A stretch of 64,000 nucleotides of DNA from Azolla caroliniana (taxonomy: Eukaryota > Plantae > Polypodiophyta), in assembly GCA_043228905.1 (NCBI GenBank), contig JBHGNT010000013.1:9672001-9736000 (forward strand), written 5' to 3'. The stretch's first letter is position 1; every line of letters begins with the position of its first letter. This document shows, in pieces, positions 3 to 29,900 of this stretch. The translations under genes and the position numbers were made by a program. The notes beneath the pieces are model-generated. The model ran no database searches. It was given only the letters and a program-made list of their open reading frames with translations, and was not told the DNA's origin.

Positions 3-2485
3 CTCACCCGATATTTCGGTGAGTACTCTGTTGCCGGCAAAGGCTATCGAACGCAGGGCGGCGAAGATCCGTTGTTCAGGGAGATAGCTCGAGTGCTCCA
101 TGAGTACGGCCACGTGTACCCCCGACCCCCTGTCATGCCAAAAAATCGGGCAGGGATGATCATAGCCACCTATGAAGGGACCAAGGTGGATTGGCCGGTG
201 TTGATTGCAGACGGTTTGTGCGTGGCAATCGACATGGTACGAGGAAAGGACGGCAAGGAGGGCCGGAAGCTGTGGCATGCCGTCGCTCAGTGGATAACAT
301 TGCTCGTGCCGCCGGTCGAGACCGTTCAGCCAAAGAAGCGGCCAAGAGTATCAGAAGGAAGCACCTCGAAGCCGGCGTCCAAACGACAGCAGCTGCTGGC
401 GTCGAAGGCGACGAAAGGGAAGAAACGGGTCCCAGAACCGGAGGAGGTGTCACCGGTCCGACCGTCAAGATAACCTTACGGAGACCGGGACAGAAGGAAC
501 CGGAACCCTTGACGGCACAGAAACATGCCGTGACACAGGAAGAGGAAACGGAGGAGCCAGAAGAGCACCTCCAACGACGGTCAAGAAGTAGGACCGCCGA
601 GACAGGAGGGGAGCGGTCGTACCCGCGAGAGGCAGAAACGCCCCCAACTCAACCTGAGCAAACCACAAGGGAAGAACCGGAACCGGTGCGTAGGGAACCG
701 GTCTTGTCGACTTCTATAGAAGAAGTCAGTCCAACGGCTCCGGAGACGGCGAGAACCGGAACTCAACAGCCGGCGAGCCCAGCCAGAGCACACGGCGGCC
801 AAGGAGTAGAACCAGAACGGCATATGCAGGCACTCAGGCCAGACAATTCCACAGTGAATGAGCCGACCCGACCAGTACAGCAACAAGGCACCAGTAGCAT
901 GTGGCTACGGTGGGTAGGCGAGCAAATCGCCGGAGTGGTCGAGTATATAGAGGCGGAAGAGAGAGCGCACCAGGAACGGTTGCTCGTCACAACCGTAGAT
1001 CTAGAGACGGCCCGGTCCAGAATCCGGAGCCTTGAACAAGACTTGGACAGGGTCACAAGGGAAATGGCTCAAGTGGCTGTGACAACACAAGTCCAAGCAC
1101 CGGTGACTCCGGGCAATGTACAGAATAAAGCGGCAGATCAACCTGTACATAGCAATCAGACCCCGGCAACGGAAACCGTTCCGGAGAGAAATGCGGCACA
1201 AGCCCAAGAGCTTGCGGATTTAAAGGATGAGCTTGCTGCCCAAGAAGCGCTGAGGAGCCGCGAAAGAGAATTGAAGACGGCAGCGGAGGTAGAACTCAAA
1301 AAGACTGCTGAGAATCTACGCCGGGCCGAGGAGAGCTTACGGAAAGGCCACCAAGCGTACGACCGGCTCAAGGAGGAGAAGGAGAAAATGCTGCAAGAGA
1401 AGGAGAGGCTCCGGAGGAACGCCGAAACAGAAGTAGAGCGCCTGAAAGAGGAACTCCGGCAGGTAAAGGACCGGGAGGACCGGAACCATCGCCAGATCAA
1501 CGGCAAGCTCAAACAAAAAACGGAGGAATTTGAGCAATTGCACCGGGAGTATAAACGGTTACAAACGGAGCACAAGGAACGGACGGATGAGCTCCGGCAA
1601 GCAGTTGATCGGACCGCAACCGCATTCGCCAAGGAACAAGCGGAAAACAGAAGACGGTTGGAAGAGGCGGAGAAGGTTCGGACAGAGCTCCTCAGGCAAC
1701 AGCAGGCGGAAAAAGAAAGAGCGGCGGAGGTACTGCAGAGGCTGCAAACGACATATCAAGGGCAGCTGACGCGCTACAGAGAGCAGGCGGAGGATACGGC
1801 AAATCTCATCAAGCAGTTGAAGGAGGAGCGACAAGTGGTGGAAAGCAGAGCACAAATGGGAGCAAGTCGCATCCAGGATATCATGTGGGCCTGGTTGAAC
1901 CAGACCAAGAGCTTGATTGACAACGGCTCCGTCAAATGGTGGACCCAGTGGGCCACGAACACGGCGGAACTCCAACTGCTCCGGGCCGACGTAGAGAACC
2001 GGCGGAAGGAGGGAGATGATTGCTATATGCTGAATTCTGAAGATTTCACCGGCATAAGAGATGAGCTGGCCGAAGACTTTCAAGCCTTGGCAGAGGACCA
2101 ACTAGAGCAAGTCCGGCAACTTGTAGCTCAGCTGGATGACGACAGGCTGGAGGCGCAGATCCAGTTTGAAAGCTACGAGAGGTCCCGGATCCGGGGAGAG
2201 AAAGAACGAGAACCAGTTACGGTCAACCTCAGTGATGAGGAACCGTTACTGGAAGGAGACCGGACCGGAAGCAGTCAAACGGAGATGCCGGAGCTAGAGA
2301 GACAAACGGAGCAGCCGGAGTCAGCGGAACAAACGGAGCAGCAGCAGCAAGCAGAGCAAGCGGAGCAGCCTCAGTCCCAACCGCAACCACAGCAGCAGCA
2401 GCAAGCACAGCCGCAGCAACCACAACCGGAAGAACAAGTGGAAATTCTTGAACAAAGTATTTTGGACAATTTGGGTGAACAATGA
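3..2485 (+). CDS. Retroelement extra ORF: globular N-terminal part (frame of 72..473, open from the window start) apparently frameshifted into a low-complexity linker, long coiled coil and Q/E/P-rich tail (191..2485)
   Basis: ORFs of 133 aa and 764 aa overlap. The E/K/R/Q-rich heptad-like region spans about aa 260-650. No gag/pol motifs. Confidence 0.6.
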
Positions 2486-2913
2486 AGGGGCCGAGAAGGG
2501 TTCGACGTACAAGGTACTGTCCCACGGGCGTGCTATGTGTTACCGGCCGGCAAGTGTCATGAACAGTACTGAGACAGAGAAGGAATTAGTACTAAACGAA
2601 GGATTAGTACTATGAGAGGTGTGGAACTTCTTCGAGAGAAGGAAGAAGTGAGCGAGACAGAGAGAAAGAGAGAGAGAGAGAGAGAGTGAGAGTGATGATA
2701 AGAAAGATATTTATTATATGAAGAGAATATACAACGGTGGCTAAAAGGCTTAAGACTGGCGTTGAACCAATTTGGTTCAACATAATGCCTAGTGCCCTCT
2801 TTTATAGTGTTTTCAGGAGTAATCCTGAAGCTTCTAGAATGTTCCAGAGAAATCTGGAATATACACTAATTTCCTATAATAAAATGTAAATGAAAATAAT
2901 ATCCTACGTATTA

Positions 2914-2986
2914 CAATAGATGGTCTAATGGTCAAGAGCTCGATCCATATAACCTAAGGTCATGGGTTCGAGTCTTGCCATATCAT
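2914..2986 (+). promoter_or_regulatory. tRNA-like Pol III type-2 promoter cassette in the 3' LTR
   Basis: A box TGGTCTAATGG at 2921, AGGTC at 2957-2961 and B box GGTTCGAGTC at 2965. T8 to T54 distance is 46 nt. Confidence 0.65.
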
Positions 2987-5900
2987 GACACTATCCCCCC
3001 TTTAAAACGACGAGTGTCACGAGTCGTCTTGGATTGAGGGCCCGGTTTGTGTGGATATTGACGATGGAAGTCTTCAAGAAGAGCACGAGCATTGGTTACA
3101 TTCTCGATCGGTTCCCAAGTACGTTCGTTGGGACTATACCCTAGCCAATCGACTAGATAGTAGAGCTTGTTGCGAACAATCTTGGAATCAAGAATGGCGG
3201 CAACCTCGTACTCCGGCCCATCTTCAAGCTCGATCGGGGGTGGAGGTTGGATAAGACGTTCTGGGATGGTGCTCTCGTGGTAGGGTTCGAAGAGAGAACT
3301 ATGAAACACCGGATGTATCCGAAGTTGAGGAGGTAGATCGAGACGAAAAGCAACATCATTAATCTTTCCAATAATACGGAAAGGACCTAATCGCCGATAA
3401 TCCAACTTCTCACATGGGCGAGTAGTCTTGATGTGTCGTCGTAGCAACCACACCCGATCTCCAATATTAAAACTAGATGGAAGTCGATGACGATCCGCGT
3501 AGACCTTGTGTGTTTGTTGAGCTTGCTGGAGATGAGTAGATAAATCCGCTTGTATCTTGCGTAACCGCTCCAAACGATCCTCCGCGCACGGATTTGTGGA
3601 CACCTCTGGGGTTTCAAGTACACTCCACCGGGGGTGACATCCCGTATAAGCATAAAATGGCGTAACTTTAGTGGATGCGTGGATAGAGTTGTTATAGGCA
3701 AATTCGGCGAAGTGGAGAATATCTGCCCAGTCATCCTGATGATAGCTGAGAAAGCACCGCAGATACTGCTCCAACGTTTGATTTGTTCATTCAGCTTGGC
3801 CGTCAGTTTGTGGGTGGTAGCTGGAAGAGAGGTTACAAGTGACCTTGAGCATGTTAAAAAGGTGCTTCCAGAATTTTGACACGAACTGGGGTCCACGGTC
3901 GCTGATGATACTATCGGGGAGTCCATGATGCCGACATACTTCACGCATGACAATTTCGGCAGTGTCTTCACTGGAGATCTCCTTAGTACATGGCAAGAAA
4001 TGAGCCATCTTCGTATATCGATCGACCACCGTTAGAATCGCATTGAACCCTTTAGAGACTGGAAGATCTGTGATGAAGTCTAGAGCAATGGATTGCCACG
4101 GCTTGCTTGGAATTGATAATGGTTCTAATAAACCATATGGATGATGCCTTGGCATTTTCGCTCTGCAACATGTATCACAAGTCCGAACAAAATCCTCGAC
4201 AAATTGTCGCATACAGGGCCACCAGAATGATCGTTGTACTAAATGTAATGTTTTAGTACTACCAAAATGCCCAGCTGTATATGTGTCATGACAGTTTTGT
4301 ACTACTCGAAGGCGGCAAGAACCATTAGGAACATACAAAAGTTCTTTAAAGAAGAGTAATCCATCATGGTATTTGAATTGCCGATAGTCCGTACCTGGTG
4401 GTTGCGACTGTGAACACGACGCTCGAGAGGGATCAATTTGTGCTAGTATAGCTTGGGCGAATGCATCTGTCTTCAAGTCTTCACGTATGGTATCGATAAC
4501 GCGGGAATCCATAGGCATGTCAAAGATTTGTGTTGCTTGTAATCGTGCCGGTCCCAAGATGACTTGTTTTTGGTTATCGAAAGCTGGCTCGCCGGGACGG
4601 GGTGCTAGATACGAACGCCGTGATAATGCATCTGCCTTCCCTTGGTGCCTCCCCGGACGATATGTAATTTTGAAGTCGAAACGCGTGAGGAAGTGGGCCC
4701 ACCGAGCTTGACGTCGATTCAACACACGAGCATCCTGAAAGTAGGCAAGATTCTTGTGGTCACTAAATACGGTGACTGGATGAGAGGATCCCTCCAGAAA
4801 ATGCCTCCATTGCATAAAAGAATCCACTATTGCCAATAGCTCCTTATCATGGATTTCGTAGTTGATTTCGGCGGCATCAAACTTGCGTGAGTGAAAAGCC
4901 ACAGGATGTAGCTTTTCATCATTCCCCTGTTGTGACAGAATGCTCCCCAATGCAAAATCCGATGCGTCAGCTTCGATAATGAATGGTTTCTCCGGATCGA
5001 CATGAGCTAGAATTGGAGCCGATGTAAATGCTTTTTTAAGACTCTCGAAAGCCATGTCCATTTCTTCAGACCAGGTGAACGGTTGTCCCTTCCTGGTAAG
5101 TTGTGTGAGAGGTAGAACGATCTTTGAGTAATCCTGTATGAACTTCCGGTAAAAATTGGCAAAGCCTAAGAAGCATTGCACATCCCGTACCGAACGCGGA
5201 GTCTGCCATTCTACCACCGTTCTGACCTTAGCTGGGTCCATGGAGATGCCTTCTGACGAAATGATGTAGCCGAGAAATTCCACTTGGTTGCACCCGAAAC
5301 TACATTTTTCTAGCTTTGCATACAGACCATGTTCTCGAAGTCGTTTTAGTACTAATAGTACATGAGAATCATGTTCTTCTTGGGTCTTTGAATAAACCAG
5401 TAGATCATCCAAATAGATGATCAAACAATCCTCCAATAGATCTCGGAATATATCATTAGCCATGTGCTGGAAGACTGCCGGCGCATTAGTGAGGCCGAAC
5501 GGCATGACAGTATACTCGAAGTGCCCATATCTGGTGCGAAATGCGGTCTTCCATTCGTCTCCTGGTCGGATCCGTACGAGGTTATATGCTCCCCGTAAGT
5601 CGATCTTCGTGAAGAACCTGGCACCATTGATCCGTTCTAAAAGACTTGAGATAAGGGGAAGAGCATATCTATTCCTGATTGTAACCTTATTCAAGCCACG
5701 GTAATCTACAACGAGACGAAGCGATCCATCTTTTTTCTTGACGAAGAAAATGGGCGCACCGGCTGGAGATTTCGAATGCCGAATGAAACCATTTTCCAAA
5801 TTCTCCTCTATATAGGCCCGAAGGACTTCCAGCTCGGTTGGTGACAAATTGTAGATCGGTCCCCATGGCGGCTCTTTTCCCGGTTGTAAATCGATGGGGC

Positions 5901-6579
5901 AATCGTACGGTCGATGATGAGGAAGTGTGTTGGCTTGTACTTTATCGAACACATCGGTGTAATGGCGATACTTCTCGGGAAGTTGAACGGTGGATTCTTC
6001 TTTAGTGGTGTTGGAGGGGTTTACTGATATTGCAAAGAGGAACATTTCCTCCTTGTGCCCTTCTTTACGCAACTGACGTAGCGAAATGGTTGCCATCTTC
6101 TGAGTTGACCCTTGGGTTTGTCGACACCGGATTTCTCTTGTTCTCCAATCTATGTCAGGGTTATGTAACTCGAACCACGGTAGTCCTAAAACTATAGGAT
6201 GTTCTGGGATACTAATAATATTAAATGATACTACACATACTAAGTTATCTAGAACAATATTAATGGGCTCTGACTCTTCTAGGATATTTCCGGAAGCAAT
6301 GGGACGTCCATCAATGACTACTACAGAGGCTGGACACTGGAGTTTTCTTAGGGATATCTTATGAGCTTGAGCAAATTTCTTATCCATAAAGCAAGAGTTA
6401 GCTCCGGAATCTAGGAGTGCTAGGACATGTACTGGAGGGGTACTTTTAGTACTAACTATTACTTGGGCTACGAACACATCACTAACTTGCTTAGAGGGAA
6501 TGGAACCACTAATGGGCTGCACAGATCTAGGGCTGTCCAACCAAACGGCTCCTATTTTGGCTGGACTTAGTCGTTTAAC
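2983..6579 (-). CDS. pol: Pol (PR LLDSGA, RT YLDD, RNase H, integrase, group I-like chromodomain EYEVAAILD...YLVDWLGY...TWEP) in the -1 frame to gag; one in-frame TGA at 3787-3789
   Basis: ORFs 3787..6540 and 2983..3774 are in the same frame, joined as GQAE*TNQTLEQYLR. Confidence 0.95.
6528..6579 (-). promoter_or_regulatory. -1 programmed ribosomal frameshift signal
   Basis: G_TTA_AAC (6579->6573), 6-nt spacer, then an 11-bp stem GTCCAGCCAAA/TTTGGTTGGAC with a possible loop-downstream pseudoknot. Confidence 0.8.
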
Positions 6580-7718
6580 TCTTCTTCTAACTGACTAAGG
6601 ACATCAAATTTGTTTGCTAGATCTGGGATATTAGTACTATTAGGACTATCAGATATCCCTACTGAAATAGGCTCGGATTTAGTACAATTAGAACTAGCGA
6701 CTATTTGGTTTACCTGTCTTCTTGGCCTATGGGGGCAATTTATTGCGATATGTCCTGGTCCACCGCAGTAAAGACATAGTCGATTTGTACGGCGTCGCTG
6801 CTTTTCTTCTTCGGATAATGGCCCTCGACGACGTGTAGTGTCAATCTCCATCGGAGTCGGAGTATTCGCTGGAGAAGCATTATATGACTCCCTCGGAAAA
6901 GGTCTTGCTACCACTGAGGCGTAGGTGGGCTCTGATCTTGCCCTCGGCATTTGTAGTTGTCGTTCCGAACGTCGCTCAAAGAGGCGGTTGTCACATCTCA
7001 CCGTGCGACTGATTGCTTCTGTTAAGGACTTTGGCTCTTCGGGGAAGGTCAAGAGTAAATCCTTGACGTCATTGCGTAAACCATAACGGAATTGCTCCAT
7101 CAACGCTTGATCATCCCAAGGGATATCAGCGGCGAGTAGGCGAAAATCTGCAGCGTATGCGGAGGCTGGACGGTCACCTTGGCGTAATCGCCGGATTTTG
7201 TTGATTGCGGTCCTGATGCTGTCAGTATCTCCGAAACATGCTTTAAACTCACCTAGAAACTCTTCAAAATTGTTGAGTAACGGAGATTCCTTTTCTAATA
7301 GTGGAGCGAACCATGACAAGGCTGAGCCACTTAACAAAGTGCCTACTAAACCCACTCGTGATGCATCGGTGGGATATCGGGAAGGATGCATTTGAATAAC
7401 TAATCGTACCTGGTTAAGGAACCCTCTAAACTGCGATCGCGTTCCATCGAACTTCGTGGGAAGGCCAATCTTAGGTTCTTTATGAATCCCTTGTGTTCCG
7501 GGCCCATGTTGTTGCATCGCTACGATGGTGGCTTCGAGTTGTTGCACGCGTAACGCAAGCTCCCCATGTTGTTGTTGCGTTTGCTGCTTTTCTAAGGAGA
7601 TTTGCTGAAGATCCCCCAGCAACCGTTGGTTTTCTTGTTCCAAAGCATGGAACTTCTCCTTCAAGCATTGGAATTCCGAGAAAACAGATTGATATTCTTC
7701 AGCGCTAACAGTGGCCAT
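6567..7718 (-). CDS. gag: Gag (retrotransposon capsid domain plus CCHC knuckle CLYCGGPGHIAINC), PEG10/sushi-like
   Basis: 383-aa ORF with EPKIGLPTKFDG, LRQG, PTPMEID and a zinc knuckle. Confidence 0.95.
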   Translation of the reverse strand: MATVSAEEYQSVFSEFQCLKEKFHALEQENQRLLGDLQQISLEKQQTQQQHGELALRVQQLEATIVAMQQHGPGTQGIHKEPKIGLPTKFDGTRSQFRGFLNQVRLVIQMHPSRYPTDASRVGLVGTLLSGSALSWFAPLLEKESPLLNNFEEFLGEFKACFGDTDSIRTAINKIRRLRQGDRPASAYAADFRLLAADIPWDDQALMEQFRYGLRNDVKDLLLTFPEEPKSLTEAISRTVRCDNRLFERRSERQLQMPRARSEPTYASVVARPFPRESYNASPANTPTPMEIDTTRRRGPLSEEEKQRRRTNRLCLYCGGPGHIAINCPHRPRRQVNQIVASSNCTKSEPISVGISDSPNSTNIPDLANKFDVLSQLEEELND

Positions 7719-7777
7719 GGGATGAAAGAAAAGAGGAATAAAAGATTAGTAGGAAATGAGAGAGACAGAAGGTAGGA

Positions 7778-7789
7778 AAATTGGTTCAA
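7778..7789 (-). promoter_or_regulatory. Self-priming PBS (TTGAACCAATTT)
   Basis: Lies 2 nt inside the 5' LTR boundary and is the exact complement of AAATTGGTTCAA (minus strand 8010->7999) in the LTR. Confidence 0.8.
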
Positions 7790-8150
7790 ACTGTCATGAA
7801 CAGTACTGAGACAGAGAAGGAATTAGTACTAAACGAAGGATTAGTACTATGAGAGGTGTGGAACTTCTTCGAGAGAAGGAAGAAGTGAGCGAGACAGAGA
7901 GAAAGAGAGAGAGAGAGAGTGAGTGAGAGTGATGATAAGAAAGATATTTATTATATGAAGAGAATATACAACGGTGGCTAAAAGGCTTAAGACTGGCGTT
8001 GAACCAATTTGGTTCAACATAATGCCTAGTGCCCTCTTTTATAGTGTTTTCAGGAGTAATCCTGAAGCTTCTAGAATGTTCCAGAGAAATCTGGAATATA
8101 CACTAATTTCCTATAATAAAATGTAAATGAAAATAATATCCTACGTATTA

Positions 8151-8223
8151 CAATAGATGGTCTAATGGTCAAGAGCTCGATCCATATAACCTAAGGTCAT
8201 GGGTTCGAGTCTTGCCATATCAT
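8151..8223 (+). promoter_or_regulatory. tRNA-like Pol III type-2 promoter cassette in the 5' LTR
   Basis: Identical copy: A box at 8158, B box at 8202. Confidence 0.65.
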
Positions 8224-9450
8224 GACAGCAAGGAGTCCAAAATACGGAGTGAAGGAATTAATTAGATATGGTTGTAAATGAGCATAGTGTGGACGGACGG
8301 ACTGGAAACGGTATGCCGTTCCAGATCCGGACGGATCCCGAATAGGTGCGAGAGGCACCGTTTTGTACTACGGGCCGGAAACCTATTTAAAGGCCCGGAC
8401 CCCATTGTAATGACAGCGGATAATTAATAAAGCTTATGATGTTTATACTTCTGTGTTGATTTCCGTTCTGTAATTACTGTTGTATCTTACGCGTGTAATT
8501 AACCGAAGCATTCTAATCGTGTAACCTATGTAAGTCGGTGTAATCATTGAATCTTAATCCTATGCCGTAATCACCCTTTGGTGAAGTGTCTCCGTGACAC
8601 CTTGTGTTAGGCCTTGTCCGGCTAGAGAATAACAGTTTGAGGAGAGATTCTATCTAAACCCTTACTCCTCGAACCTCTACCCACTTAACCCCTCCAAACC
8701 CCCCTCCTATGAATAAACCGTTCATGTCATTAGGTCAATACAATATCGTGGTCGACAATTTAAAAATAAATAATAATAATAAAAAATAAATAAATAAATA
8801 AATAACCCAAATTTAAAAAATAAAAAAAAAACAATAAAAAATAACTAAAAAATAAAAAATCATAATAATTCGAGGTAGACTAGGGTCAAGGCACGCAAGA
8901 ATCCGTACACTCCATTTAACTATACTAAGCCTTTTACCAACAGGTTGTCATCAATGGCGTCCACTCCATTAATCCAGCTCCTCCACGGCACTACCCCGAC
9001 GCCGGCTACGTTCGCACGCACGCCTTCGTGGATGTTACCCCTATCGAGTGCCAGTTAAAGGTCGCGGACGTTTGCACTACGCTACATTTGTCGGTGGATG
9101 GCATTCCCTTCCACACCAGGAACGCCCCTGACGTCGTCCCCAACATCATCCCCGCCGCCTACTCCTAGTATCTCGGATGCAAAAGTTGGCGTTTCACTGA
9201 AATTCCCCCTCACTTCCATGTTCTTTGTAGTGCCATTGCCCAGATCGGTGACACCGATGCCGTCAACCCTATCACTAATGAGTTCTTCAAGTGGGCACAC
9301 GATCCTCAACCGGTCCAGTGGGTCCACGAACTCGCCACCGACCACCCCTCCAGGCGAACCCCCCTCCCTCCTCTATCCTTCCCTCTCCCGACCCCCGAAG
9401 CTCCCCTCCCACAGTGCACCCGGGAGTGTGCACTCATTAGTTGGGGGGGA

Positions 9451-15754: not shown

Positions 15755-16644
15755 CATTTGATGGCCCACAGATTTGCATTATGACAAGATATGTCTGAAA
15801 TGATCAACCGTAGATAAATCAATTAATTAATTGGAATAAACCAATTAGTTGTTGGGTGGCATCTAGCTCTTTTTTGCAATCCACATCCTAATTTCATAGG
15901 AACTCCTAATAGCACAACAATTATTGTTATGTACACATAATGTTGGTGAGGGTAGGTCACCAATATTTACATTAGTGAAGGGTATGTTCACTAATGTTAA
16001 AAAGGGGACTAATGATTGGATAGAAGGAATGATAAGTGCATGCACTATCATGATTTGGACAACCAATAAATGGAGAGCCTTTTAGAAAGGCACATCTATT
16101 CAAGGGGCCTAAGAAAAGGTATAAATATGAGGGTAGATGAGGCTTAGCTATCCTCATAATCACATTACGTCGGAAGGGTGTTGTCTTAGACACCGGTGGT
16201 GCGGGCTAGGCTTTCGTTTCGGCGATCGTGTTTATCTCTTCCAAGGTATTAATCATCCTAATATCCGGCGGTATGGGACGTCGGTGGTAGGTTCGCTATG
16301 TCTAGATCATAACTCGAGGGTGGTCGGGTGGAACGGGTTCTTCTATCCATTCTATTTTCCTTCTTTTACTTTAGTTTGGTCAATTGATTAGTAATAGACT
16401 CTTAACAGTGGTATTAGAGCATTTACTAACAATTTTTGTTGTTGTTTTGATGTTTTTTGCATGTGAGCGATGGAGATCTAACAAGGCTCGTCATGCTCTG
16501 CACAAGATCAAAACAACATTCTTAACTCGGTATTCTTCTTTCTCGATCTTTCTCTTCTTTCTATGACGCGTTCTTTATGATCGAATCAAATTTGTATTAC
16601 GTTTTCTTTTCTTTTCTTTCTTCTTTCTACCACAATATGATTTT

Positions 16645-17100
16645 AATTATTATTGTGCATCGGGCCAAGCGTGTTTGCACTAATCGCATACGCCCAACTC
16701 ATGGCCTTTTGCATATTGCGATGTGTCTCCCACTCTCCTGTCTCTTGAGCCTTCTCTTACGATATTAATTATTCTTGTGCATCGGGTCGAGCGTGTTTGC
16801 CCTAATCGCACACGCTCACCTCATGGCCCTTTTGCATATGATGTTCAATATGCCACTCTTCCCTCTATTGAGCCATCACTTGGTCGAGTCTATGGGATGT
16901 TGTGGCCATGACGAGGTGTATGTCGCCTACCTATGCCACTCTACTCTTAATTGAGCCATCACTTGGCCGATTCTATGGGATGTTGTGTCCTTAACAAGGT
17001 ATATGTCGCTTACCTATGCCACTTTACTCTTTATTGAGCCATCAATTGGTCGATTCTAGGGAGATGTGGTGGTCTCGAGGAGGTGCATGTTGACTACCTT
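16645..17100 (+). repeat. Tandem repeats in the element A leader (two ~120-bp units, then about three ~83-bp units)
   Basis: TTAATTATT..GTGCATCGGG..CTAATCGCA occurs twice. TATGCCACT..ATTGAGCCATCA..TGG occurs three times. Confidence 0.75.
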
Positions 17101-18093
17101 AGGGTTTCATACCTTAAGACATGCTTAATGATTCATACACCTAATTGATTATTATTCTAATTCATTTCGAATTACATAAATTTTTGTTTCACTTTTGTAT
17201 GATTTTCTAGTAATTGTCATTTACCCACCCACAATTAACTCTCTTTCTTGCCCTTATTTTAAGTTCATCTACACTATTTACGTACGTTTAATGGTGTATG
17301 ATTCATGTAGACTATTTTTTAATATTGAGTGGGCATCATGCCGTTTTTTGAACGATTTTTTCCAATGGCTCATCTAGGTTTCACTCATATTATCGAGCCT
17401 TAGAACTCGAGTAAAACCACATGAGTTCCCCTATTGATGTTTTACTCATAGATTTGAGTTCTACATCTTTGCGAACAACACCACCACCACGTGTATCAAT
17501 TTGTGGCTTATGTCACATTTGTGCAAATTACAACCACCATATTGGGATGTATATGTGCATACCTCGCACCATCCATTTATTTGTGACTTTTTTTTTTAGT
17601 AGGTAACACATGGGTTTTTTGACCCTTATTTTTGTCACTACTTGATTCTTATGGGTAGTGCCTTATTTTATCATTTTTGTCATAACATTTGCTTGTTACT
17701 CGCAAGACTAAAATATTACTTGTGAGTGCACTTGTTTTTTCACGTAATACACTTTCTCGACCATATCAATACATGTTGGGTTGACATTCTAATATAAGGC
17801 TAACTAGGAAACTACATTGATGTTAGAACCATGGTTGAGCCTCGGGGAGCCGCCATGATTATTCAAGATAGAGATCCGAGAAATACATCTTAGCTATGTT
17901 TTCCCCCATGGTTTTTAAAACACCATAGTGTTACCATAGTTCTCAGATCTCGAATCACATCTCATATGTCTAGAGGGGTAAAGACGTGAGATGCTTTCTT
18001 GGTAAAGTTCTTACAATCAAAATTTCAAGCATTCATTTTGCTTGTGTATTTTCTGAACCTCCTTATTTATATTTTATACCCACAGCTTGCATC

Positions 18094-18942
18094 ATGGAAC
18101 AAGTTTTGAACGTTGTTGGAGCAATCTCTCCGACCGAGACCTCTCAACTACAATCCGCATCTCGCACACAAGCTGAGATCACTATTGAGCAATTGCTCAC
18201 TACTACCTTGAATCAATTGGCCGAAATGAGGCAAGCCAATATGGCATTGGAAAAGAAATTCCAAGAATGGACTATTGAGTCCATGGAAAAAGGTGAGCCT
18301 TCTTTCATAGTAACGCCATTCAAGGGAGATAAGAAAGAAAGAACCAAGTAGGCCGTTAGCACTTGGCTTGGTCGTTGGGAGTCTAACTTTGAGCTCCACC
18401 CCAAGCCCAATGCTATAAAAATTGGTTACATCGGTCGTGAGTTAGGTGGCCGAGCTGCTGCTTGGTGGCGCGGCCTAAGGACTGCAAAGAACTTACCCAC
18501 AACTTGGGAAGGTTTCGTTGATGTTTTTAAGAAATAGTTTTTGCAACCACCTTCTCAAACTGAACAAGTGCAACACTTGCTCACATTGTCGAGTAAGCCA
18601 TTTATCTCTCTCGAGGATTATGTGCATCATGCTCGGACCCAAATCCAAAAATCGGGACTTACGGGTGAGAAATGGTTTGTTGCTTGCTTTTTGAATGGTA
18701 TTCCTAATGGGGATTACCATTGGATTGTCCATGACAAGGACCCCACAACTTTTGAGGAAGCCGTCAACATTGTACTTCGGTACCATAGGACTTCCAAGAA
18801 AAACCATAATAAACCTGAGTTCGCCAAAACTCCGAATGTCAAGTTCATTGGGAAACGTAAGCAATCCAATGACACTCTTGACCGCGACTCTAAGAAACCT
18901 AGCCTCTTCTATGCATATTGCAAGAAACGGGGCCACACAAAG
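18094..18942 (+). pseudogene. gag: Element A gag, 5' part (in-frame stops), cut within the zinc knuckle
   Basis: Similar to element B gag (GEPSFIVTPFKGDKKERT, LEDYVHHARTQIQKSGL). CAYCKKRGHTK continues as DTCRRL at 25902. Confidence 0.9.
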
Positions 18943-19650
18943 TGTTACGGGCATGACCATTTAATATCCCGTGGTGAGAATTTACCGTAGTATTTTATAC
19001 ACGTGGATAAGTGTGAGGGTTAAACGAGAGTGTAAAGAAGGGGAGGATTACTTTTAATCCTCGGGATTGAGACAACCCATTAGGTCAAGTGTGAACTTGC
19101 TTGGGGGCCTTGGGTATCGCTATAAATAAGAGGCCTAGCTACCCTCATTTGATCATCTTTTTTACTACATCGAGACTCTGCTCTTGTGGTGGGTCAACTC
19201 TTGTAGCGAGCGCGCCAGCACCAGGTACGACTCGACGCCACGGCGGTGGTATGGGACGCCGATCGAGGCTCGAGTCCGTCTCGATCCCTTCGCTCGGGGG
19301 TGGTCGGGTGGATCGACACCCTTCTTTCTCTTTCTCCTTTCTATCTATCATTTGTTTATCCTTATCTTAAGCTTACTTTAGTACTTAGATCTCTAATATT
19401 TGGTATCAGATTTATGTACTAATGTTTCTTTGTTTGTCTTTTGTCTTTTGATTGATGGTGATCGATTGATGTGCGGTCGGCCTTGATCCAGACAACGATC
19501 AACAAAGAACTTCAGTAACTCTTTCCATAATTTTTCTTTCTATTCTCTCTTCTCCCATCTAATCACGTGTTTAGTTTATATGTCATTTTTTTTCATTAAG
19601 TCAATGATGTTGTAGTGGCCTTTAATTGATTATCTAAAACATTTACATAT

Positions 19651-19910
19651 GTGCACGAGGTCAATACCTCGTTTGACATATTAATAATATGGGATGAGTG
19701 TCGTATGCATACGAGGTTAATACCTCAATTACGTATTACGTTCATGAACATATGTTACGTTTGCGTATGAGTTTAATACCTTGATTTGTTGTAAACGATA
19801 TGCGGTTGGTCTCGTATGCGTAAGAGGTCAATATCTCAATTGCGTATTACGATGATCTCTTATTTGTGGATGTTTCGTGTGCGTAGAGGTATATACCTCG
19901 ATTACGTATC
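19651..19910 (+). repeat. Five ~56-bp spaced hairpin repeats GAGGT-NAAT-ACCTC in the element B leader
   Basis: Cores at 19657, 19713, 19769, 19824 and 19886. Confidence 0.75.
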
Positions 19911-21080
19911 TCAATCACACCATTTGTGGCTATTTAATATAACGATATGTTAATATAGGCATATGTGGTCACGTATATACGTATTTGATCGTATATATGT
20001 GATAAGTAAACATATGTGTATATTCGTTATTACGTGATTATATCGAAAGTTGTCCTTGTCGAGAAAAGGATGTTGGTGGCCGTCCTCACATTTTTGTGAG
20101 AATGGCGTTGTCACCATCCCTTTTTCAACAATGTTTTATTGTTGACAACCCCGTTGATGACCTCGATTTCGTTACGTAAAGAAACGCCTATAGCCATAAC
20201 GATGTTGAGTACGTAGGGCTTGACCCATTTCAAGTGAGGTCGCTCCAATGACACACGTATCCAACATCCCTCCCTCGTTACATGGATACGATGCCACCAT
20301 GAGCTCGTTATTACGAAGGGCGTTCGTAATGACGTGACCATGTGATGGGCCACATGAGCCTACTACGAAACGAGGGCTCATTTGGCTTGACCATTAGGTT
20401 GCACTTTGGCGTATGCTATCGTAATTACGAGACTTGAGGTTAGGTAACGCACCAACATAGTTTTGGTAAATGAGGGAAAAATAAGGACCCTTGACATATA
20501 TGTTCTTTTAGAAAAAACATATATGATCTTGCATATCTCTTATACGCATCAAACATTAAGCATTCAAGAGGAGCAACTTACTTGGTTGGCTCAAGTGTTT
20601 AATGTACTTGTTCTCGAGGTCTCGAGTTCAAATATGACCAAGACCATACAACATCCTTGATACATATGACTATAACACATTTTTAGACTTAAGGTCTAAG
20701 TGCACCTCGGGGTCCTCGTAATAGGACTTAAAGAGCCGAAACCACATATGTGGGCACCGAAACATAGTTTATTGTTAACATTTTTTTCGTGTATAAACTA
20801 TTCATGACGCGAACATACATGGTTGAGCCTCGGGGAGCCACCATGAAAAAATCGATATAGAGATTAGGGAAAGACATTTATTTGTCACCCCCATGGTTTT
20901 TAAAACACCTTTGTGTTACCATAGTAACCTGATCTTGAACCTCATCTCATACGGCTAGAGGGGTATTGACATGAGATAATGATATCGATTAATGCTTGCC
21001 CATGATAGGTTTACATCATGACATGATGTTATGACTATCTCTCTGACCTTATCCTATTTCTTTTCCAGAAATAATCTTTA

Positions 21081-24000
21081 ATGGCTCAAATTAACGACCC
21101 GATGTCATCCGCTCAAGCAGAAGGAACTCAAGGGAATCCTCCTGGGCAAATGTCCACTGAGATGTATTTGGCACAAATAACCCAATACCTTAGTTTCACC
21201 GCTCAACAAATGACCGAACTTCGGCAATCTCAGAGTGCTCTTGAGGCACGTGTCATTAGTCTACAACATGAGACTAATAGACCTGATGAGCGACAAGGTG
21301 AACCATCATTTGTCGTTAAGCCATTTACGGGAGACAAAAAGGAAAGAACCGAAGAAGCAATCTGCACATGGCTAGGACGATGGGAGTCTCCTTTTGAGCT
21401 CTATCCCACGCGTGGGCTCCGTACTATGGGGAAATTGCCCGATACCTGGACAGATTTTGTCACGGTTTTTAAGGGCCAATTTCTGCAACCTCCCTCTCGA
21501 ACTGAGGCCGCACAAGCTTTAATGAACCTCTCTAGCAGGAAATTTTCCTCACTAGAAGACTATGTTCACCATGCTAGAACCCAAATCCAAAAATCGGGTC
21601 TAGAAGGGGACAATTGGTTGATAGCTTGTTTTGTCAATGGCATCCCCAATTCGGACTATCACTGGATAGTGCACGATAAGGATCCAAAATCCTTCGAAGA
21701 GGCCGTTGAAATAGTTCTTTGCTATCAACGCACTTTGAAGAAGGACCACAACAAACCCAACGAAGTGCTCGGGACTAAGCAGTCGCAATTCGTTGGGAAA
21801 CACAAGACACCCAATGAATTCATGGATCGCGATTGTAAGCGACAACATCCTTTTTGCGTATTCTGCAAAAAGAAGGGTCATACAAAAGATCAATGTCGAA
21901 AGCTCCAACGGAAAGAGCACGACAACAAAGCTAAAGTTGCAGACCATAAAGGTCAGATCCCTAATGTCCTTCAGGTCTATACACATCATTTAAGTAATTG
22001 TCAATGTTCTTTCCCTCATTATGTATTGGGTCCCAATGATTTACTACGTGCAAACGGGTATATCAATGGATCTCCCGTACAATTTTTATTTGATTCGGGA
22101 AGCTCACACAATTTTATGAATGATCGTTTGGTTCAGATATGGGGAATCCAACCCACCGTAAGTGATCACACCTACACGGTGCACTTGGTTGATGGAAGAG
22201 TACAATACATCAACGGGACGATTCATTCATTAGGAATTTCTATTGATACTTATATAGAAGAAGTAGACTTCCATGTAATGAATCTTTGTACCACCGATGT
22301 AATATTGGGTTATCCCTGGTTTTATAATAAAAACTCTTCTTTATTTATTGATTGGGTTCGCCATTCCATTTATTTTGTACTGAACGATTGTACGCATTTT
22401 ATTCAATATGTAAAAAAACAATCCCTCTCGATTGTTTCCTCGTGTCCATCAATATCCGAGTTGTCTTGTTCTACGTTATTTTATTGTGTACTTGATCCGG
22501 ACATTCACGTTTACAATATCGATAATGTCCCGGTTCAATTAACATATTTTGAACAACAACAACTTGATGAAATCTTAAATGATTTTCATGATGTTTTTCC
22601 AAGTGAACTACCTGATGGGTTACCTCCTAAACGTAATATAGACCATCGTATAGATATTGTACCTGGTGTTGCACCAATAAGTATACCTCCGTATCGCTTA
22701 AGTTGATCCGAAGAAGATGAGGTATCTAAGCAACTCAAGGACTTTTTACGAATGGGTTATATACGTTATAGTAAATCTCCATGGGGTGCACCAATTCTCT
22801 TGGTTAAAAAGAAAGAGGGCACATGGCGTATGTGTATTAATTACCGACGCTTGAATAAAGTGACGATCAAGAATTTGTACCCATTGCCCCGGGCTGACGA
22901 TCTAATTGACCGTCTCCAAGGAGCTTGGTATTTTACGAAACTTGATCTCCGTACTGGCTACCATCAAATACGAATAAGTGAGGACGATGTTCCTAAAACG
23001 GCATTTCGTACGCGCTATGGCCATTGCGAGTTTTTGGTTATGCCTCTTGGTTTGACCAATGCTCCGGCTACTTTTCAACAAGAAATGAATGACATTTTCC
23101 GTGAACAACTTGGAAAATTTGTCGTTATTTTCTTGGATGATATTTTAGTTTATAGTCGTACATTACAAGAACATGCTAGACATGTCCGCTTTGTTTTACA
23201 AACATTGCGTGACAAACAGTTTTATGCGAAGATCTCAAAATGTGAGTTCTTCAAGAAATCAATTACTTATCTTGGACATCTCATAACCGAACGAGGAGTT
23301 GAAATTGATCCTTCTCGCATTGAGAAAATCAAGCTTTGGCCCACTCTTCGGAATATTCGAGAAGTTCGATCATTCCTTGGTTTTGTCGGGTTTTTGCGAA
23401 AGTCTCTTCGTAATTACTCCCAATTGACGACGCCGTTTACTGATCTTTTAAAAGGTCAAATGCGTAAGTCTACAAAACCTATTGTGTCGAATGCTACACT
23501 AGACCTCGCCTTTAAGGAACTCAAGGACCTGGTTTGAAGGGCTCCTTCACTTCTTTTACCTGATCCTTTAAAACCTTTTGAGGTTGAAACCGATGCAAGC
23601 GATTATGGTATAGGTGTTGTCTTGTATCAAGATGGTAAACCAATAGCATTCGAGAGTAAGAAACTTGATTATGCTCAATGTCGGTATACCGTTCAAGAAA
23701 AGGAATTATTTGCAGTTATACATGCGCTCAAAACATGGCGCCATTATCTTTATGGAAATCGCTTTGTGGTAACTACAGACCACGAGTCCTTGAAATATTT
23801 TTGTGACCAACAAGACCTGAAAGGTCGTAAGGCACGATGGGCTGATCTCATCCAGGACTTTGATTTTTCCATACGATATCGTAAAGGTTCCATGAACACT
23901 GTCGCTGATGCACTAAGTCGCATCCATGAAGTTAACATGCTTAGCTTCACTGAAATAACATCATATCTTTATGATCACCTTCGAGGAAAGTATCCTAATG

Positions 24001-25487
24001 ACAGTTATTTTGCAAAATATTGGGCAAGAGTTGAGTCTGGAACAGACATCACCACATCCTCGAAGGAATACTTCCACATTGCTAACGGTTTGCTCTACCG
24101 TAATGGGAAGGTTTGTGTTCCAGATTTACCCGAGGTCAAAAAGAGGATTCTTTTTGAATGCCATGATGCACCCTCAGCAGGGCACCCTGGAATACATCGT
24201 ACACTCGTTCTCATCTCCACTCAATTTTATTGGCCTAAGATGCGTCGTGACATACATAGCTATGTGACTAAATGTCACCAGTGTCAAGTTAACAAAGCCG
24301 AGCGACTTAAAGCCGCAGGACTTTTACATCCCTTGGACATTCCCAATAATAAGTGGGAAAGTATATCCATGGATTTTATTGTTAGCCTTCCTCGCACCCA
24401 GAAATGTCATGATGCCATCTGGGTTGTCGTTGATCGACTAACTAAAATGGCCAGATTTATTGCTACTAAAACCACAATAACAGCTCCTGAATTGGCTTAC
24501 CAATTCATTGACGAATTGTTTCGTTTTTATGGGTTACCGATGGATATCGTGAGTGATCGAGATCCAAAGTTTACTAGTGACTTCTCGACGCAAGTCTTTA
24601 AGAAGTTAGAAACTACGTTGAGCATGAGCTCCACGGATCATCCTCAATCTGATGGACAGACAGAACGAGTAAATCAAATTATTGAGGACATGCTTCGAGC
24701 ATACGTTGGTGCAAAACCAACAAAATGGGAACGTTATCTCCCAATTTTGGAGTTTGCTTATAACAGCTCCAAGCATACGTCGACGGGATATAGTCCTTTT
24801 ATGTTGATGTATGGTTTTCAGCCATAAGCCCCAATTGATGTTAATATACATCATGATGAGTTGCGAAGTACGCAAAACTTTCATCGGGATATGCAAGATA
24901 TGTTGCATATTGCACGAGATAATATAAAAACAGCTCAAGATAGAGCGCGTTTTTATGCCGATCATCATAGGCAACCTCGTGTCTTCAACCCTGGACAGAA
25001 GGTATTTTTACGTGTACCTCACAATTCTAAGACATTGTCTACGGGTAAGTGCGCTAAGTTAGCCCCACGGTTTTGTGGACCTTTTACAGTCCTCAAACGC
25101 ATTGGGTCATCAGTCTATCGTCTTGCTCTTCCCGATGGTGTTGGAATTCATCCAGTCTTCCATGTGAGTCGTCTAAAAGAACTTCTAGGTTCTAGCGACA
25201 ATACAATTACAACTGAAACTCTGGTTACTTCTGAAGAATTATCTTCTAAACCACATGTACCAAAAAGAATTCTCGATGTTAAAACAAAAAAATTACGTAC
25301 TAAAGAAATCCGAGAATTTAAAATAAAATGGATGGATAAATCAATAAAAGATGCCACATGGGAACGCGAAAATACTCTTAGAACTAATTTCCCTAACTTT
25401 CCATTGCAAGAGTGCAATGTTTTAAAGAGGGGGGGAGTATGTTACGGGCATGACCATTTAATATCCCGTGGTGAGAATTTACTGTAG
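21081..25487 (+). pseudogene. Element B single-frame gag-pol (CCHC, PR FDSGS, RT FLDD, RH, INT, group II-like chromodomain) broken by three stop codons; ORF runs into the 3' LTR
   Basis: ORFs 21081, 22752, 23622 and 24861 are all in the same frame. Confidence 0.95.
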
Positions 25488-25901
25488 TATTCTATACACG
25501 TGGATAAGTGTGAGGGTTAAACGAGAGTGTAAAGAAGGGGAGGATTACTTTTAATCCTCGGGATTGAGACAACCCATTAGGTCAAGTGTGAACTTGCCTG
25601 GGGGGCCTTGGGTATCGCTATAAATAAGAGGCCTAGCTACCCTCATTTGATCATCTTTTTTACTACATCGAGACTCTGCTCTTGTGGTGGGTCAACTCTT
25701 GTAGCGAGCGCACCAACACCAGGTACGACTCGACGCCACGGCGGTGGTATGGGACGCCGATCGAGGCTCGAGTCCGTCTCGATCCCTTCGCTCGGGGGTG
25801 GTCGGGTGGATCGGCACCCTTCTTTCTCTTTCTCCTTTCTATCTATCATTTGTTTATCCTTATCTTAAGCTTACTTTAGTACTTAGATCTCTAATACAAA
25901 G

Positions 25902-28900
25902 GATACATGCCGTCGTCTTGAGAGGAAGTCAATAAACACCCCTCCTCAAGACAAATCTACAAGTCACACAGGTGAGTCTTTTGATGTTGTTGAAGTTCAT
26001 ACCAACCATTTAAGTTCATGTGAATGCACTTTTCCTTCACATTTACTTGGACCTAATGATTTACTCCGAGCAGTCGGGTATATCAATGGAACACAAGCAC
26101 ATTTCTTGTTTGATTCCAGTAGTTCTCACAATTTTCTTAATGATCACTTTGTGCAGCAAATGGAACTCCACATAAACGCAAGTGATCATATCTATCAAGT
26201 TCACATGGCAAATGGAAGTGTTCAATACATCAATGGCATTGTTTGTCAACTGCCAACTCAAATAGATACCTATTTGGAGAAGCTTGACTTTCATGTTATG
26301 AAACTAAAATCCGCAGATGTCATTTTAGGATACCCTTGGTTTTTTAATAAAAACCCTTCTTTGTCCATTGATTGGGTTAATCACTCAATCACATTTGAAC
26401 TTAATAATTGTAAACATTTTATTCAATGTTCCAAACTTCCTTCTCGTTCACTTGTGTCTTCTAAATCTTTAAGTGAGTATTCAAGTTCATTAATTTATTC
26501 GTGTGTTGTTGATCCTGTGCTTCAATTTTATTATTTTAATATTGACGCCACACAATTACCACATTATGAACAACGATTACTCCACTCTATTTTAGACGAT
26601 TTTCAAGACGTGTTTCCTAACAAATTGCCACTTACTTTACCACCAAAACGTAATGTGGACCATCAAATTGAACTCATTCCTGGTGTTGCTCATGTGAGCA
26701 TTCCATCTTACTAACTTAGTCTATTAGAAGAGGATGAGATCGCTAAACAACTTAAGGAATACTTGAGTATGGGCCACATTAGGTATAGTAAATCACCTTG
26801 GGGTGCGCCAGTTCTATCGGTTAAGAAGAAGGAAGTTTCATGGCGAATGTGTATCAATTATCGCCGTTTGCATAAAATGACAATTAAAAATGCATATCCG
26901 TTACCTCGTGCCAATGATTTGATTGATCGTTTGCATGGGGCCCGATATTTTACGAAAATTGACTTACGGAGAGGTTACCATCATATTAGCATTGCCGAGG
27001 ATGATATTCCTAAAACCGCTTTTCGTACGCGCTATGGCCACTATGAGTTTTTAGTCATGCCTTTCGGGTTGACTAATGCTCTAGCCACATTCCAACAAGC
27101 GATGAATGACGTTTTCCGAGATCAACTCGGTGATTTTGTTGTCATCTTCTTGGATGATATTTTGATATATAGTTGTACCTTGCAAGATCATGTTCAACAT
27201 GTTCAATTTGTTTTGCAAAAGTTGCGTGACAACTCTTTCTATGCAAAACATTCAAAATGTAATTTTTTCCAAAAGTCTAGTGTGTACCTAGGTCATTTAA
27301 TTACAGAAAATGGTGTTGAAATTGAACCTTCTCGTATTGAAAAGGTTAAACTTTGGCCCATTCCTCGTAATATTCGTGAATTGTGATCATTCTTAGGGTT
27401 TGTTGGATTTTTACGAAAATCAATTCGTAACTATTCCAAATGGACTACGCCATTAACTGACCTTTTAAAAGGTCATCCACGTAAGTCTGTCAAACCAATT
27501 GCATGGAATGAACAACTTGACAAATCATTTAAGACACTCAAAGAGCATGTGTGTCTGGCTCCCGCTCTTCTATTACTGGACCCTTCTAAGCCTTTCTCAA
27601 TTGAAACTGATGCCAGTGATTATGCTATTGGTGTCGTTCTTTATCAATGTGGTCACCCTATTGCTTTTGAAAGTAAGAAGCTTGATGCTACTCAATCTCG
27701 GTATTCAGTTCAAGAGAAAGAGTTGTTTGCGGTAACACATGCACTTAAAACATGGAGGCACTATCTCTATGGAAATAAATTTGTGGTTACAACAGACCAT
27801 CAATCATTGAAGTATTTTTGTGACCAGCCAGATCTTGTTGGTCATAAAGGCCGTTGCGTTGACCTTATGCAAGATTTTGATTTTTCCATACGGTATCGCA
27901 AGGGTTCTATGAACACTGTTGTGGATGCTCTTAGTCGCATTAACGAAGTTAACACGCTTAGCTTCATGGAAATAAAATCTAATCTGTTAGATCACCTTCG
28001 AGGGAAATACCTTGATGACAGTTATTTTTTGAAATACTGGACAAAAGCCGAATCTGGTTTAGATGCTGATACTAGCACCCTACCCTCGAAGGCGACCTTT
28101 CACATTAGAAATAGTTTGCTCTACCGTAGTGGAAAGGTTTGTGTTCCAGATTTACCAAACGTAAAACAGAAAATTCTTCATGAATGTCATGATGCACCAT
28201 CTGCTGGTCATCCTGGAATACAATGCACACTCGTTCTCATCTCGAGTACTTTTTTCTGGCCTAAGATGCACTCTAACATGCATAAATACGTAACTCAATT
28301 CTTACAATGTCAGATTAATAAGTCAGAACGACTTAAAGCTATGGGTCTTTTACATCCCTTAGATATGCCCAACAACAAATGGGAAAGTATCTCGATGGAT
28401 TTTATTGTTAGTTTACCTTGTACACAGAGGGGTCATGATGCCATCTAGGTTGTCATTTACAGACTAACAAAATTGGCTAGATTTATTCCTACCAAAACCA
28501 CGGTAACCGCTCAACAATTGGCTTATCAATTTGTTGATGAGTTATTTCGTTTTTATGGATTACCAATGGATATTGTTAGTGATCGATATTCCAAGTTTAC
28601 TAGTGACTTTTGGATTCAAGTCTTTAAGAAACTAGAAACTACGTTGAGCATGAGTTCTGCAAATCATCCTCAGTCTGATGGACAAACTGAATGAGTTAAT
28701 CAAATTATTCAGGACATTCTTCGAGCTTATGTAGCAAAAACCCCTTCTAAGTGGGAGCAATACCTTCCTATCTTAGAATTTGCCTATAATAGCTCTAAAC
28801 ATACATCCGCTGGATATAGTCCTTTTATGTTGATGTATGGTTTTCAGCCACGTGCCCCAGTTGATGTCACGATTCATCGTGATACATTAGACAGTACAAG

Positions 28901-29900
28901 CAATTTTTTGCAAGACATGAACCAAATGTTGCATATTGCCAAAGAGAATGTCAAGACAGCTCAAGATCATGCTCGATTTTATGTTGATCAGGATAGACGT
29001 CCTCGTGCATTTACTATTGGTCAAAAAGTTTTTTTGCATGTCCCTATTGACTCTACGTCATTGTCTACGGGAAAGTGCGCTAAGTTAGCCCCACGATATT
29101 GTGGCCCATTTGAAATCCTTAAGCGGATTGGGTCATCTGCTTATCACCTTGCCTTACCCCGTAACGTTGGTATTCATCCTATTTTTCACGTTAGTCTATT
29201 GTTAAGAATTAGGTAAGTAATTAAGGGTTAATTAGTACCTAATTATGTGATTAGTTGATAAGCAGAAGATTATGTGATATGTGTGTGTATGTGTGTGAGA
29301 GGAAGAGAGAGAGGAGAGATATGAACAACACAAGATGGGGGATGAGTAAACTAGAGTGTATATTATAAAACATCATCATCAAATACAAAACTACCATCAA
29401 TGAGGTATATATAGATCTCATGTGCAAGGGTGCACATGTGTGAGGAGAATATAGGTACAATCGTGTAAGTCCTATATTAAATGACCTTGGGAGTGGAGGA
29501 TCTAGAATATCCTACTTAAGTACAAGGTCCTATTTAAGTCGTTATAGTCAACACTTCTAACTAGATTCTATCTAGGTAACTACGAAGTTACATGGTTGAC
29601 TAACTAACTAAACTAAGTTGAGCTTGATCTCTCAACAGTTGTCTAAAACCATAGGCTCTGGTGATAACACCATCACAATCCAAGATCTTGTAACATTAGA
29701 GGATTTTTCTTACAAACCTCATGTTCCTGAACAAATTCTTGATTCTCATACTTAAACGTGTTCTAAAGAGATTCGGCTATTCAAGATCAAATGGATGGAT
29801 AAACCTATTGATGATGCCACATGGGAACACGAGCATACTCTTAGGGCACAATTTCCTCACTTTATATTGCAAGAGTGCAATCTTTTGAAGTAGGGGAGTA
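25902..29900 (+). pseudogene. pol: Element A gag end and pol (PR, RT FLDD, RH, INT, chromodomain-like) with several stops
   Basis: ORFs 26106, 26763, 27549, 28473 and 28827 are collinear with element B pol. Confidence 0.92.
29200..29637 (-). mobile_element. Copia-type solo LTR inserted in the element A integrase C-terminus
   Basis: TGTTAAGAAT...GAGCTTGATCTCTCAACA interrupts the HPIFHVS/LK motif. No clean TSD. Confidence 0.75.

Follow-up and report, generated by a model that had tools for sequence, protein, structure and literature searches.

A putative tRNA-derived Pol III promoter, antisense at the LTR tips of a coding-complete chromovirus lineage

The known LTRs derived from small-RNA genes, namely those of Helenus, Ajax and Cassandra, all belong to non-autonomous elements in the account of PMC10886601. 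The closest described system is that of the Helenus TRIMs (TRIMp3; Kojima 2024, PMC10886601), which share with the element analysed here the presence of tRNA-derived sequence in both LTRs, with the regions of the A and B boxes conserved and mostly no functional tRNA; a promoter role is presented there as a proposal only. The Helenus elements are, however, short (311-1263 bp), non-coding, non-autonomous and tRNA-primed (PMC10886601), whereas the element in our window (by which we mean the whole 64-kb stretch of DNA that was analysed) has a 5.7-kb gag-pol organization, is predicted to prime itself and has its own TATA box. In the Helenus consensus sequences inspected, including Helenus-1_SMo, the tRNA part is in sense orientation and has been proposed to transcribe the element (PMC10886601), whereas here it is antisense, and the promoter is not oriented to transcribe the element. 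According to the same paper, resemblance to part of a tRNA is found in "not a few LTRs" of Repbase, and only the short TRIMs were followed there (Kojima 2024, PMC10886601); therefore, undescribed cases like this chromovirus may sit in Repbase. Cassandra and Ajax also captured an internal Pol III promoter in their LTRs, where it is kept by selection, but this promoter is of type 1 (5S), the elements are non-autonomous and the promoter drives their own RNA, which is described as shown for Cassandra (PMC10886601).

With regard to its coding part, the element resembles the Tcn1 chromoviruses, e.g., SM-Tcn1 of Selaginella (PMC2864245, PMC6317226), with which it shares LTRs of ~440 bp, overlapping gag and pol frames, an aromatic-cage chromodomain, the lack of a tRNA primer site and predicted self-priming. 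The difference is that the LTR of SM-Tcn1 has no tRNA-like boxes, as judged by eye, and the Tcn1 descriptions consulted mention none (PMC2864245, PMC6317226). Self-priming was predicted for Tcn1 (PMC6317226), and the description of SM-Tcn1 reports no evidence of it (PMC2864245). By eye, the SM-Tcn1 sequence shows the same self-primer and primer-binding site (PBS) layout as the window element.

Two further systems are relevant for comparison. In the bipartite PBS of Ty3 (PMC5371799), the U3 RNA is likewise complementary to the T and D arms of a tRNA in the same orientation; Ty3, however, pairs with one primer tRNA and has a 5' site for that tRNA (PMC5371799), whereas the window element is apparently self-primed and has retained boxes that follow a degenerate consensus, spaced as in a complete tRNA. 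Insulators borne by mobile elements, such as the Idefix LTR insulator (PMC1885662) and the B2 SINE boundaries (PMC8136502), share the combination of a mobile element with a boundary-type site, and barriers that depend on TFIIIC are reportedly known in yeast from the work of Simms in 2008. These cases rely on other proteins (CTCF for B2, PMC8136502) or are non-mobile sites, and none is a tRNA-type promoter in the LTR of a plant chromovirus. In a literature search that covered few subscription papers, we found no description of tRNA-type boxes in autonomous chromovirus LTRs.

Structure of the element and of its cassette

The Ty3/gypsy element of 5.7 kb spans 2555-8227 on the minus strand, and at the U3 tip both of its LTRs have the same tRNA-like cassette in antisense orientation, consisting of A box, AGGTC and B box. 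The features are as follows.

2555..2990, minus strand: 3' LTR of the putative Tcn1-type chromovirus, 436 bp, TGTCATGA...TCATGACA
7792..8227, minus strand: 5' LTR, 436 bp, 1 difference from the 3' LTR
2550..2554 and 8228-8232: target-site duplication GCAAG, 5 bp
6567..7745, minus strand: gag ORF with Retrotrans_gag domain and zinc knuckle
3787..6594, minus strand: pol part 1, with protease, RT, RNase H and the start of integrase, ending at the in-frame TGA 3787-3789
2983..3786, minus strand: pol part 2, in the same frame as part 1, with the integrase end, SH3 and chromodomain
2991..3006, minus strand: polypurine tract (PPT), preceding the 3' LTR
2799..2807, minus strand: putative TATA box of the LTR Pol II promoter, 114 nt from T8 and divergent from the cassette
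2762..2773, minus strand (copy at 7999-8010 in the 5' LTR): predicted self-primer, R start
7778..7789, minus strand: primer-binding site, complementary to the R start over 12 nt and separated from the 5' LTR by 2 nt
2921..2931, plus strand: A box (tRNA 8-19), 3' LTR
2957..2961, plus strand: AGGTC, tRNA variable-loop positions 44-48, conserved as strongly as the boxes
2965..2974, plus strand: B box GGTTCGAGTC (tRNA 52-61), 16 nt from the LTR end
8151..8227, plus strand: second cassette, 5' LTR, identical to 2914-2990, facing outward into host DNA

Since the LTRs differ at a single base and are flanked by a 5-bp target-site duplication, the insertion is recent. The domain order (gag, then PR-RT-RH-IN with a C-terminal chromodomain) is that of Tcn1. 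The chromodomain reads Y-EV...VDW.GY, which we take to include the aromatic-cage positions. In place of a tRNA PBS there is a self-primer complement of 12 nt, compared to the 10 nt regarded as the minimum, and its partner, the R start, lies ~30 nt below the TATA box. Tcn1 elements are reported from non-seed plants. We provisionally assign the element as Tcn1-type, with the likeness to SM-Tcn1 judged by eye and a tree free of named Tcn1 references; an aromatic cage in the chromodomain is typical of Tcn1 (PMC6317226).

A preliminary description of the window had called the element coding-complete. This is incorrect for the window copy, in which pol is split by the in-frame TGA in the integrase, but it applies to the lineage: among the 15 cassette-bearing relatives long enough to judge (collapsed repeat contigs), 13 have pol open over 1183-1281 codons, indicating that the lineage is autonomous. 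The element is nested in the apparent LTR of another retroelement (window 176-2485 and 8228-8750), which has a coiled-coil-like ORF of 769 codons without a Pfam match.

The tRNA numbering of the cassette proposed in that description is confirmed: T2921 corresponds to position 8, A2927 to 14, followed by GG at 2930-2931, with AGGTC (2957-2961) at 44-48 and T2967 at 54; likewise, the divergent TATA box reported ~110 bp away was found at 114 nt from T8. The identity of the two copies also holds, but the second one extends to 8227, and not to 8223 as first given. A combined A-box/B-box pattern occurs in only 2 places in the 64 kb, on both strands, and these are the two cassettes. In 100 block shuffles of the window, the same pattern was found 0.13 times on average, with a maximum of 1; thus, a single match alone is only modestly above chance, and the relatives are decisive. 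A profile of real tRNAs ranks the two cassette copies top in the window (15.5 bits) and has no match in its seven other LTR stretches.

The cassette lacks the attributes of a tRNA gene, that is, a cloverleaf with paired stems and a covariance-model match. The covariance-model similarity raised in the preliminary description as a check was not found, with no RF00005 match in the window at E<=10, and Rfam scans revealed no tRNA in the window, in L069 (a distant relative) or in 20 further loci. ARAGORN at default settings called no tRNA gene in the 64-kb window, and relaxed thresholds yielded scattered noise only. The cassette does contain the A and B boxes at tRNA spacing that characterize a type 2 Pol III promoter, with G10 poorly kept. 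Between the cassette and the TATA box, there are TTCTAGAA-type repeats (window 2820-2860 and many related LTRs), which we take to resemble heat-shock elements; in the group of L015, L019, L023 and L026, GC-richer CATGC repeats replace them.

Occurrence and conservation among relatives

Relatives were gathered with an alignment of the SH3-chromodomain region, from which we used the best 77 of at least 594 confirmed stretches. Together with the window this yielded 78 loci; 11 were dropped because they had no LTR start or <80 nt of LTR, and the remaining 67 usable elements form 32 families at 80% protein identity, among the best 77 only. Within the first 220 nt of the LTR, 20 of the 67 elements (9 of the 32 families) have a perfect antisense pair of A and B boxes, 32-37 nt apart; when one A-box mismatch was allowed, the numbers were 30 of 67 and 14 of 32. 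The corresponding controls (perfect; one A-box mismatch) gave 0 and 0 of 67 on the sense strand and 2 and 15 of 1714 internal windows, and the following 220 nt of LTR gave 0 of 98. One mismatch per box is an unspecific setting, with 256 of 1714 internal windows matching.

An independent profile was built from 131 phage-borne tRNAs that are unrelated to the elements, a bacterial-type and pattern-selected set. With this profile, 37 of 67 elements had an antisense U3 score that exceeded those of at least 99 of 100 dinucleotide shuffles, one of them (L059, 3.3 bits) probably by chance, whereas the sense strand never scored. In the reverse test, the cassette profile matched 84 of the 131 real tRNAs at 8 bits or more, compared to 0 of 2620 shuffles and 0 of 131 reverse complements. 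The same profile matches 40 3' LTRs, partly by construction. Of these, 32 belong to the window's clade (33 loci) and 7 to a second one (11 loci), and the last is the distant L069. There is no cassette in the clades of L049 (10 loci) and L061 (5 loci) or in L034, L059, L074 and L077, and L045 and L071 have a B-like word only. Since the L049 and L061 clades, and SM-Tcn1 as judged by eye, lack the cassette, Tcn1 elements can do without it; on our tree, which is the result of a quick search, the distribution of the cassette requires several gains or losses. The positive loci come mostly from one series of assemblies, and close copies are present in runs of at least five coded organisms. No relatives were found in viral contigs. 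Two RNA runs yielded 0 (X20) and 2 (X22) contigs, which as assembled contigs give neither strand nor start.

Conservation was analysed in 22 representatives, <80% alike over the cassette, from the 38 selected; since a match to the boxes was part of the choice, box conservation is overestimated, and the representatives are related to one another, such that shuffle counts are not probabilities. The A-box region is represented by T8 (18/21), R9 (19/21), A14 (21 of 22), T16 (22), G18 (20) and G19 (21), with the textbook G10 kept in 6 of 22 only; the variable loop by A44 (21), G45 (20), G46 (20) and T47 (22); and the B-box region by G53 (22), T54 (21), T55 (21), C56 (20), R57 (22), A58 (22) and C61 (18). 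Position 59 varies freely and position 57 is either G or A, which, together with A58 in all 22 and C61 in 18, is the pattern of a protein-read B box. Remnants of the anticodon loop were observed as well (a pyrimidine at 33 in 22/22 and T35 in at least 19/22, despite the lost anticodon stem), and the promoter boxes do not account for them. The conservation of Y33, T35 and 44-48 exceeds the need of textbook boxes.

In 158 pairs with <65% protein identity, the fraction of identical positions was 0.77 for the box core and 0.78 for positions 44-48, but 0.35 for the rest of the cassette and 0.36 for the flank. The positions that were mostly unused in selection (8, 9, 16, 20, 21, 52 and 60) showed 0.75 identity in pairs below the same threshold. 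In the 38 selected LTRs, G19 and G53 are 34 or 35 nt apart, although a spacing was required by the selection, with 32-37 allowed in the search. The distance from the B box to the LTR end ranges from 16 to 65 nt (163 nt in L069), so that the B box is not the integrase end site. The 50 nt before T8 are 73-84% AT, and the Pol II TATA box is 114-212 nt away in 20 loci; AT-rich upstream DNA is a feature of plant tRNA genes (PMC13578239). Within the window's family, the last 28 bp of the LTR are nearly variant-free, and the family data alone therefore cannot tell the B box from an end site. Common family variants are located at tRNA positions 5, 6, 9 (G to A), 10, 12, 31, 36 and 41; rarer ones are found at position 14 and in the B-box CpG, where C2969T reaches ~9% of depth in run X5. 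Mutation of this CpG in some copies would follow if methylation affects many copies, which are perhaps inert.

The boxes are thus neither absent nor randomly mutated overall in sister families, but are conserved across divergent ones. The reading put forward for the window, that is, a tRNA origin with selective retention of the promoter boxes, is supported beyond the window by the relatives and the profile of real tRNA sequences. The preliminary description had also considered the acceptor and anticodon stems to be decayed; they are indeed unsupported, but across relatives this is true of all four cloverleaf stems. Conserved cloverleaf pairing was rejected (49.7% paired compared to 48.8% in shuffles, 146 of 500 as high). 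One pair of the D stem, 11-24, holds in 19/22 with 6 double changes. The long hairpin into which the window cassette (2920-2986) folds has a z of -3.6 to -4.6 and would be stabilized further by the variants 2944 and 2949, which are common in the family; a clade-wide hairpin was rejected, since only 2 of 22 representatives reach z<=-2 and there is no consensus fold.

A further claim concerned an antisense transcript of ~960 nt. The first TTTT on the plus strand is indeed at 3874 (and at 8361 downstream of the 5'-LTR copy), but an RNA of this length is not a feature of the clade: TTTT occurs within 64 nt after C61 in 14 of 22 representatives, compared to 8.7 in shuffles (20 of 2000 shuffles as high). 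This fits a short Pol III RNA in most families. The window's family differs, with 899 nt free of TTTT after the B box, and in L006 and L011 the TTTT-free stretch is about 900-1030 nt. Inside the cassette, TTTT is found in 1 of 22 representatives versus 6.3 expected; however, AAAA is also rare (1 versus 4.2), and so there is no case for avoidance of TTTT.

Candidate function and competing readings

As far as comparison of sequences can establish it, the cassette is real, selected and clade-wide. Retention of both boxes at tRNA spacing with loss of the fold is as predicted for a DNA site of TFIIIC, which reads boxes A and B and loads TFIIIB upstream (PMC5911963, PMC13578239). Being antisense, the promoter cannot make genomic RNA. 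We consider it somewhat probable that the cassette serves as a promoter for TFIIIC and Pol III that is under selection and likely forms a boundary of open chromatin next to the Pol II promoter. An ancestral LTR would have captured a tRNA or the head of a tRNA-SINE, which would then have been copied into both LTRs with every replication. The resulting DNA site may be bound by TFIIIC and probably also by TFIIIB/Pol III, with TFIIIB loading on the AT-rich DNA at the TATA side of the cassette. The bound factors could keep open, boundary-like chromatin between the flanking DNA and the element's Pol II promoter, and the cassette of the 5' LTR, which separates host DNA from this promoter and faces away from it, would have the geometry of a barrier. 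In most families, the promoter would also give, as a by-product, a short Pol III RNA that terminates close to the LTR edge. Families that keep both boxes likely recruit the host tRNA-gene machinery and possibly shield their own promoter from silencing. The weakest step is the benefit itself: barrier or open-chromatin activity is plausible here but somewhat doubtful. More tentative still is the full picture, in which an old autonomous, self-priming chromovirus branch might carry a mobile TFIIIC barrier, that is, a captured tRNA promoter facing outward at the LTR tip, which would keep the Pol II promoter open in heterochromatin and seed thousands of Pol III-factor boundary sites genome-wide.

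Several other readings were weighed against this one. The cassette could be a productive Pol III gene, with selection acting on its antisense RNA, which would adjust copy number or serve as a source of small RNAs across the PPT, the chromodomain and the integrase end. This possibility agrees with the complete A box, the constant spacing and the AT-richness of the DNA upstream, as well as with the long TTTT-free stretches in the window's family, L006 and L011 and the hairpin of the window cassette (z -3.6); yet most families have a TTTT within 64 nt, the hairpin is specific to the family, and RNA antisense to coding sequence should, we reason, harm the element. We therefore regard a selected antisense RNA as unlikely. 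Selection might instead act on the genomic RNA, in which U3, being complementary to the D, variable and T loops of a tRNA, would recruit a host tRNA for packaging or strand transfer in the manner of the 3' half of the Ty3 bipartite site. The place and orientation are those of Ty3, in which the primer tRNA pairs through its T and D arms with U3 (PMC5371799), and the conserved positions are those of tRNA loops, including 44-48, Y33 and T35. Conversely, in the window, L015, L046, L053, L054 and L062, the PBS is complementary over 11-12 nt to the R start of the element itself, so that a tRNA primer is apparently unneeded; a self-primer and PBS with matching changes on both sides were found in 6 of the 22 loci long enough to search, with two palindromic matches set aside, and a 5' PBS complementary to a tRNA 3' end, as in Ty3, is lacking. 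Moreover, position 59 and all stem positions drift, unlike what is expected of pairing with one tRNA, and the D, variable and T loops of tRNA are modified and buried. Recruitment of a tRNA by the genomic RNA is accordingly rather improbable.

TFIIIC binding might also be put to use in integration, through tethering of the cDNA end to Pol III loci or through LTRs serving as landing pads. The box is near the cDNA end, and Ty1, Ty3 and TRE5 are described as targeting TFIIIB/TFIIIC sites (PMC5911963). However, an early break against relatives was seen in only 2 of 38 cassette LTRs (25 and 92 nt upstream of T8), where 6 had no relative to compare and collapsed contigs hide rare insertions, and the window copy is inserted into another retroelement, while the 64 kb contain no called tRNA gene. 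A role in integration thus appears quite improbable. Finally, the cassette could be neutral, a SINE relic or chance look-alike kept by recent common ancestry or by the adjoining conserved LTR end. This would agree with the nearly variant-free last 28 bp within the family, the negative Rfam result and two decayed tRNA-like heads elsewhere in the window. The boxes, however, hold 0.77 identity where spacer and flank drop to 0.35, the box-to-end distance varies, and the cassette is shared by two deep subclades and L069; the neutral explanation is very improbable and has been largely refuted.

If the cassette indeed is a TFIIIC/Pol III promoter, LTR promoters derived from small RNAs would no longer be confined to non-autonomous TRIMs but would also be found in autonomous elements, and their accepted use would be ruled out here by the orientation. 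A built-in TFIIIC site would be a concrete, mutable candidate for how chromoviruses, which are drawn to silent chromatin, still get transcribed. High-copy LTRs with A and B boxes could also reshape the genome-wide binding of Pol III factors, and in some non-seed plants the number of tRNA genes counted might be raised by them. Excess tRNA calls in ferns are said to have been noted in an earlier account. A review gives >7500 tRNA genes for Azolla filiculoides (PMC13578239).

Other repeats in the window

Decayed tRNA-like heads were also observed outside LTRs, in the window at 49978-50027 (minus strand) and 35244-35286 (plus strand), in L007 at 1004-1050 (minus strand) and in L018 at 292-318 (plus strand). 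They score 11-15 bits with the cassette profile and possibly represent SINEs of the host, from a family akin to the captured head. A second nest of retroelements is located at 15925-30373, where an element with 457-bp LTRs (18943-19398 and 25440-25896) lies inside a related gypsy element (LTRs 15925-16407 and 29901-30373); neither of the two carries the cassette. A tandem array of ~8 copies of a 214-bp unit, with alternating subtypes, occupies 55139-56833.
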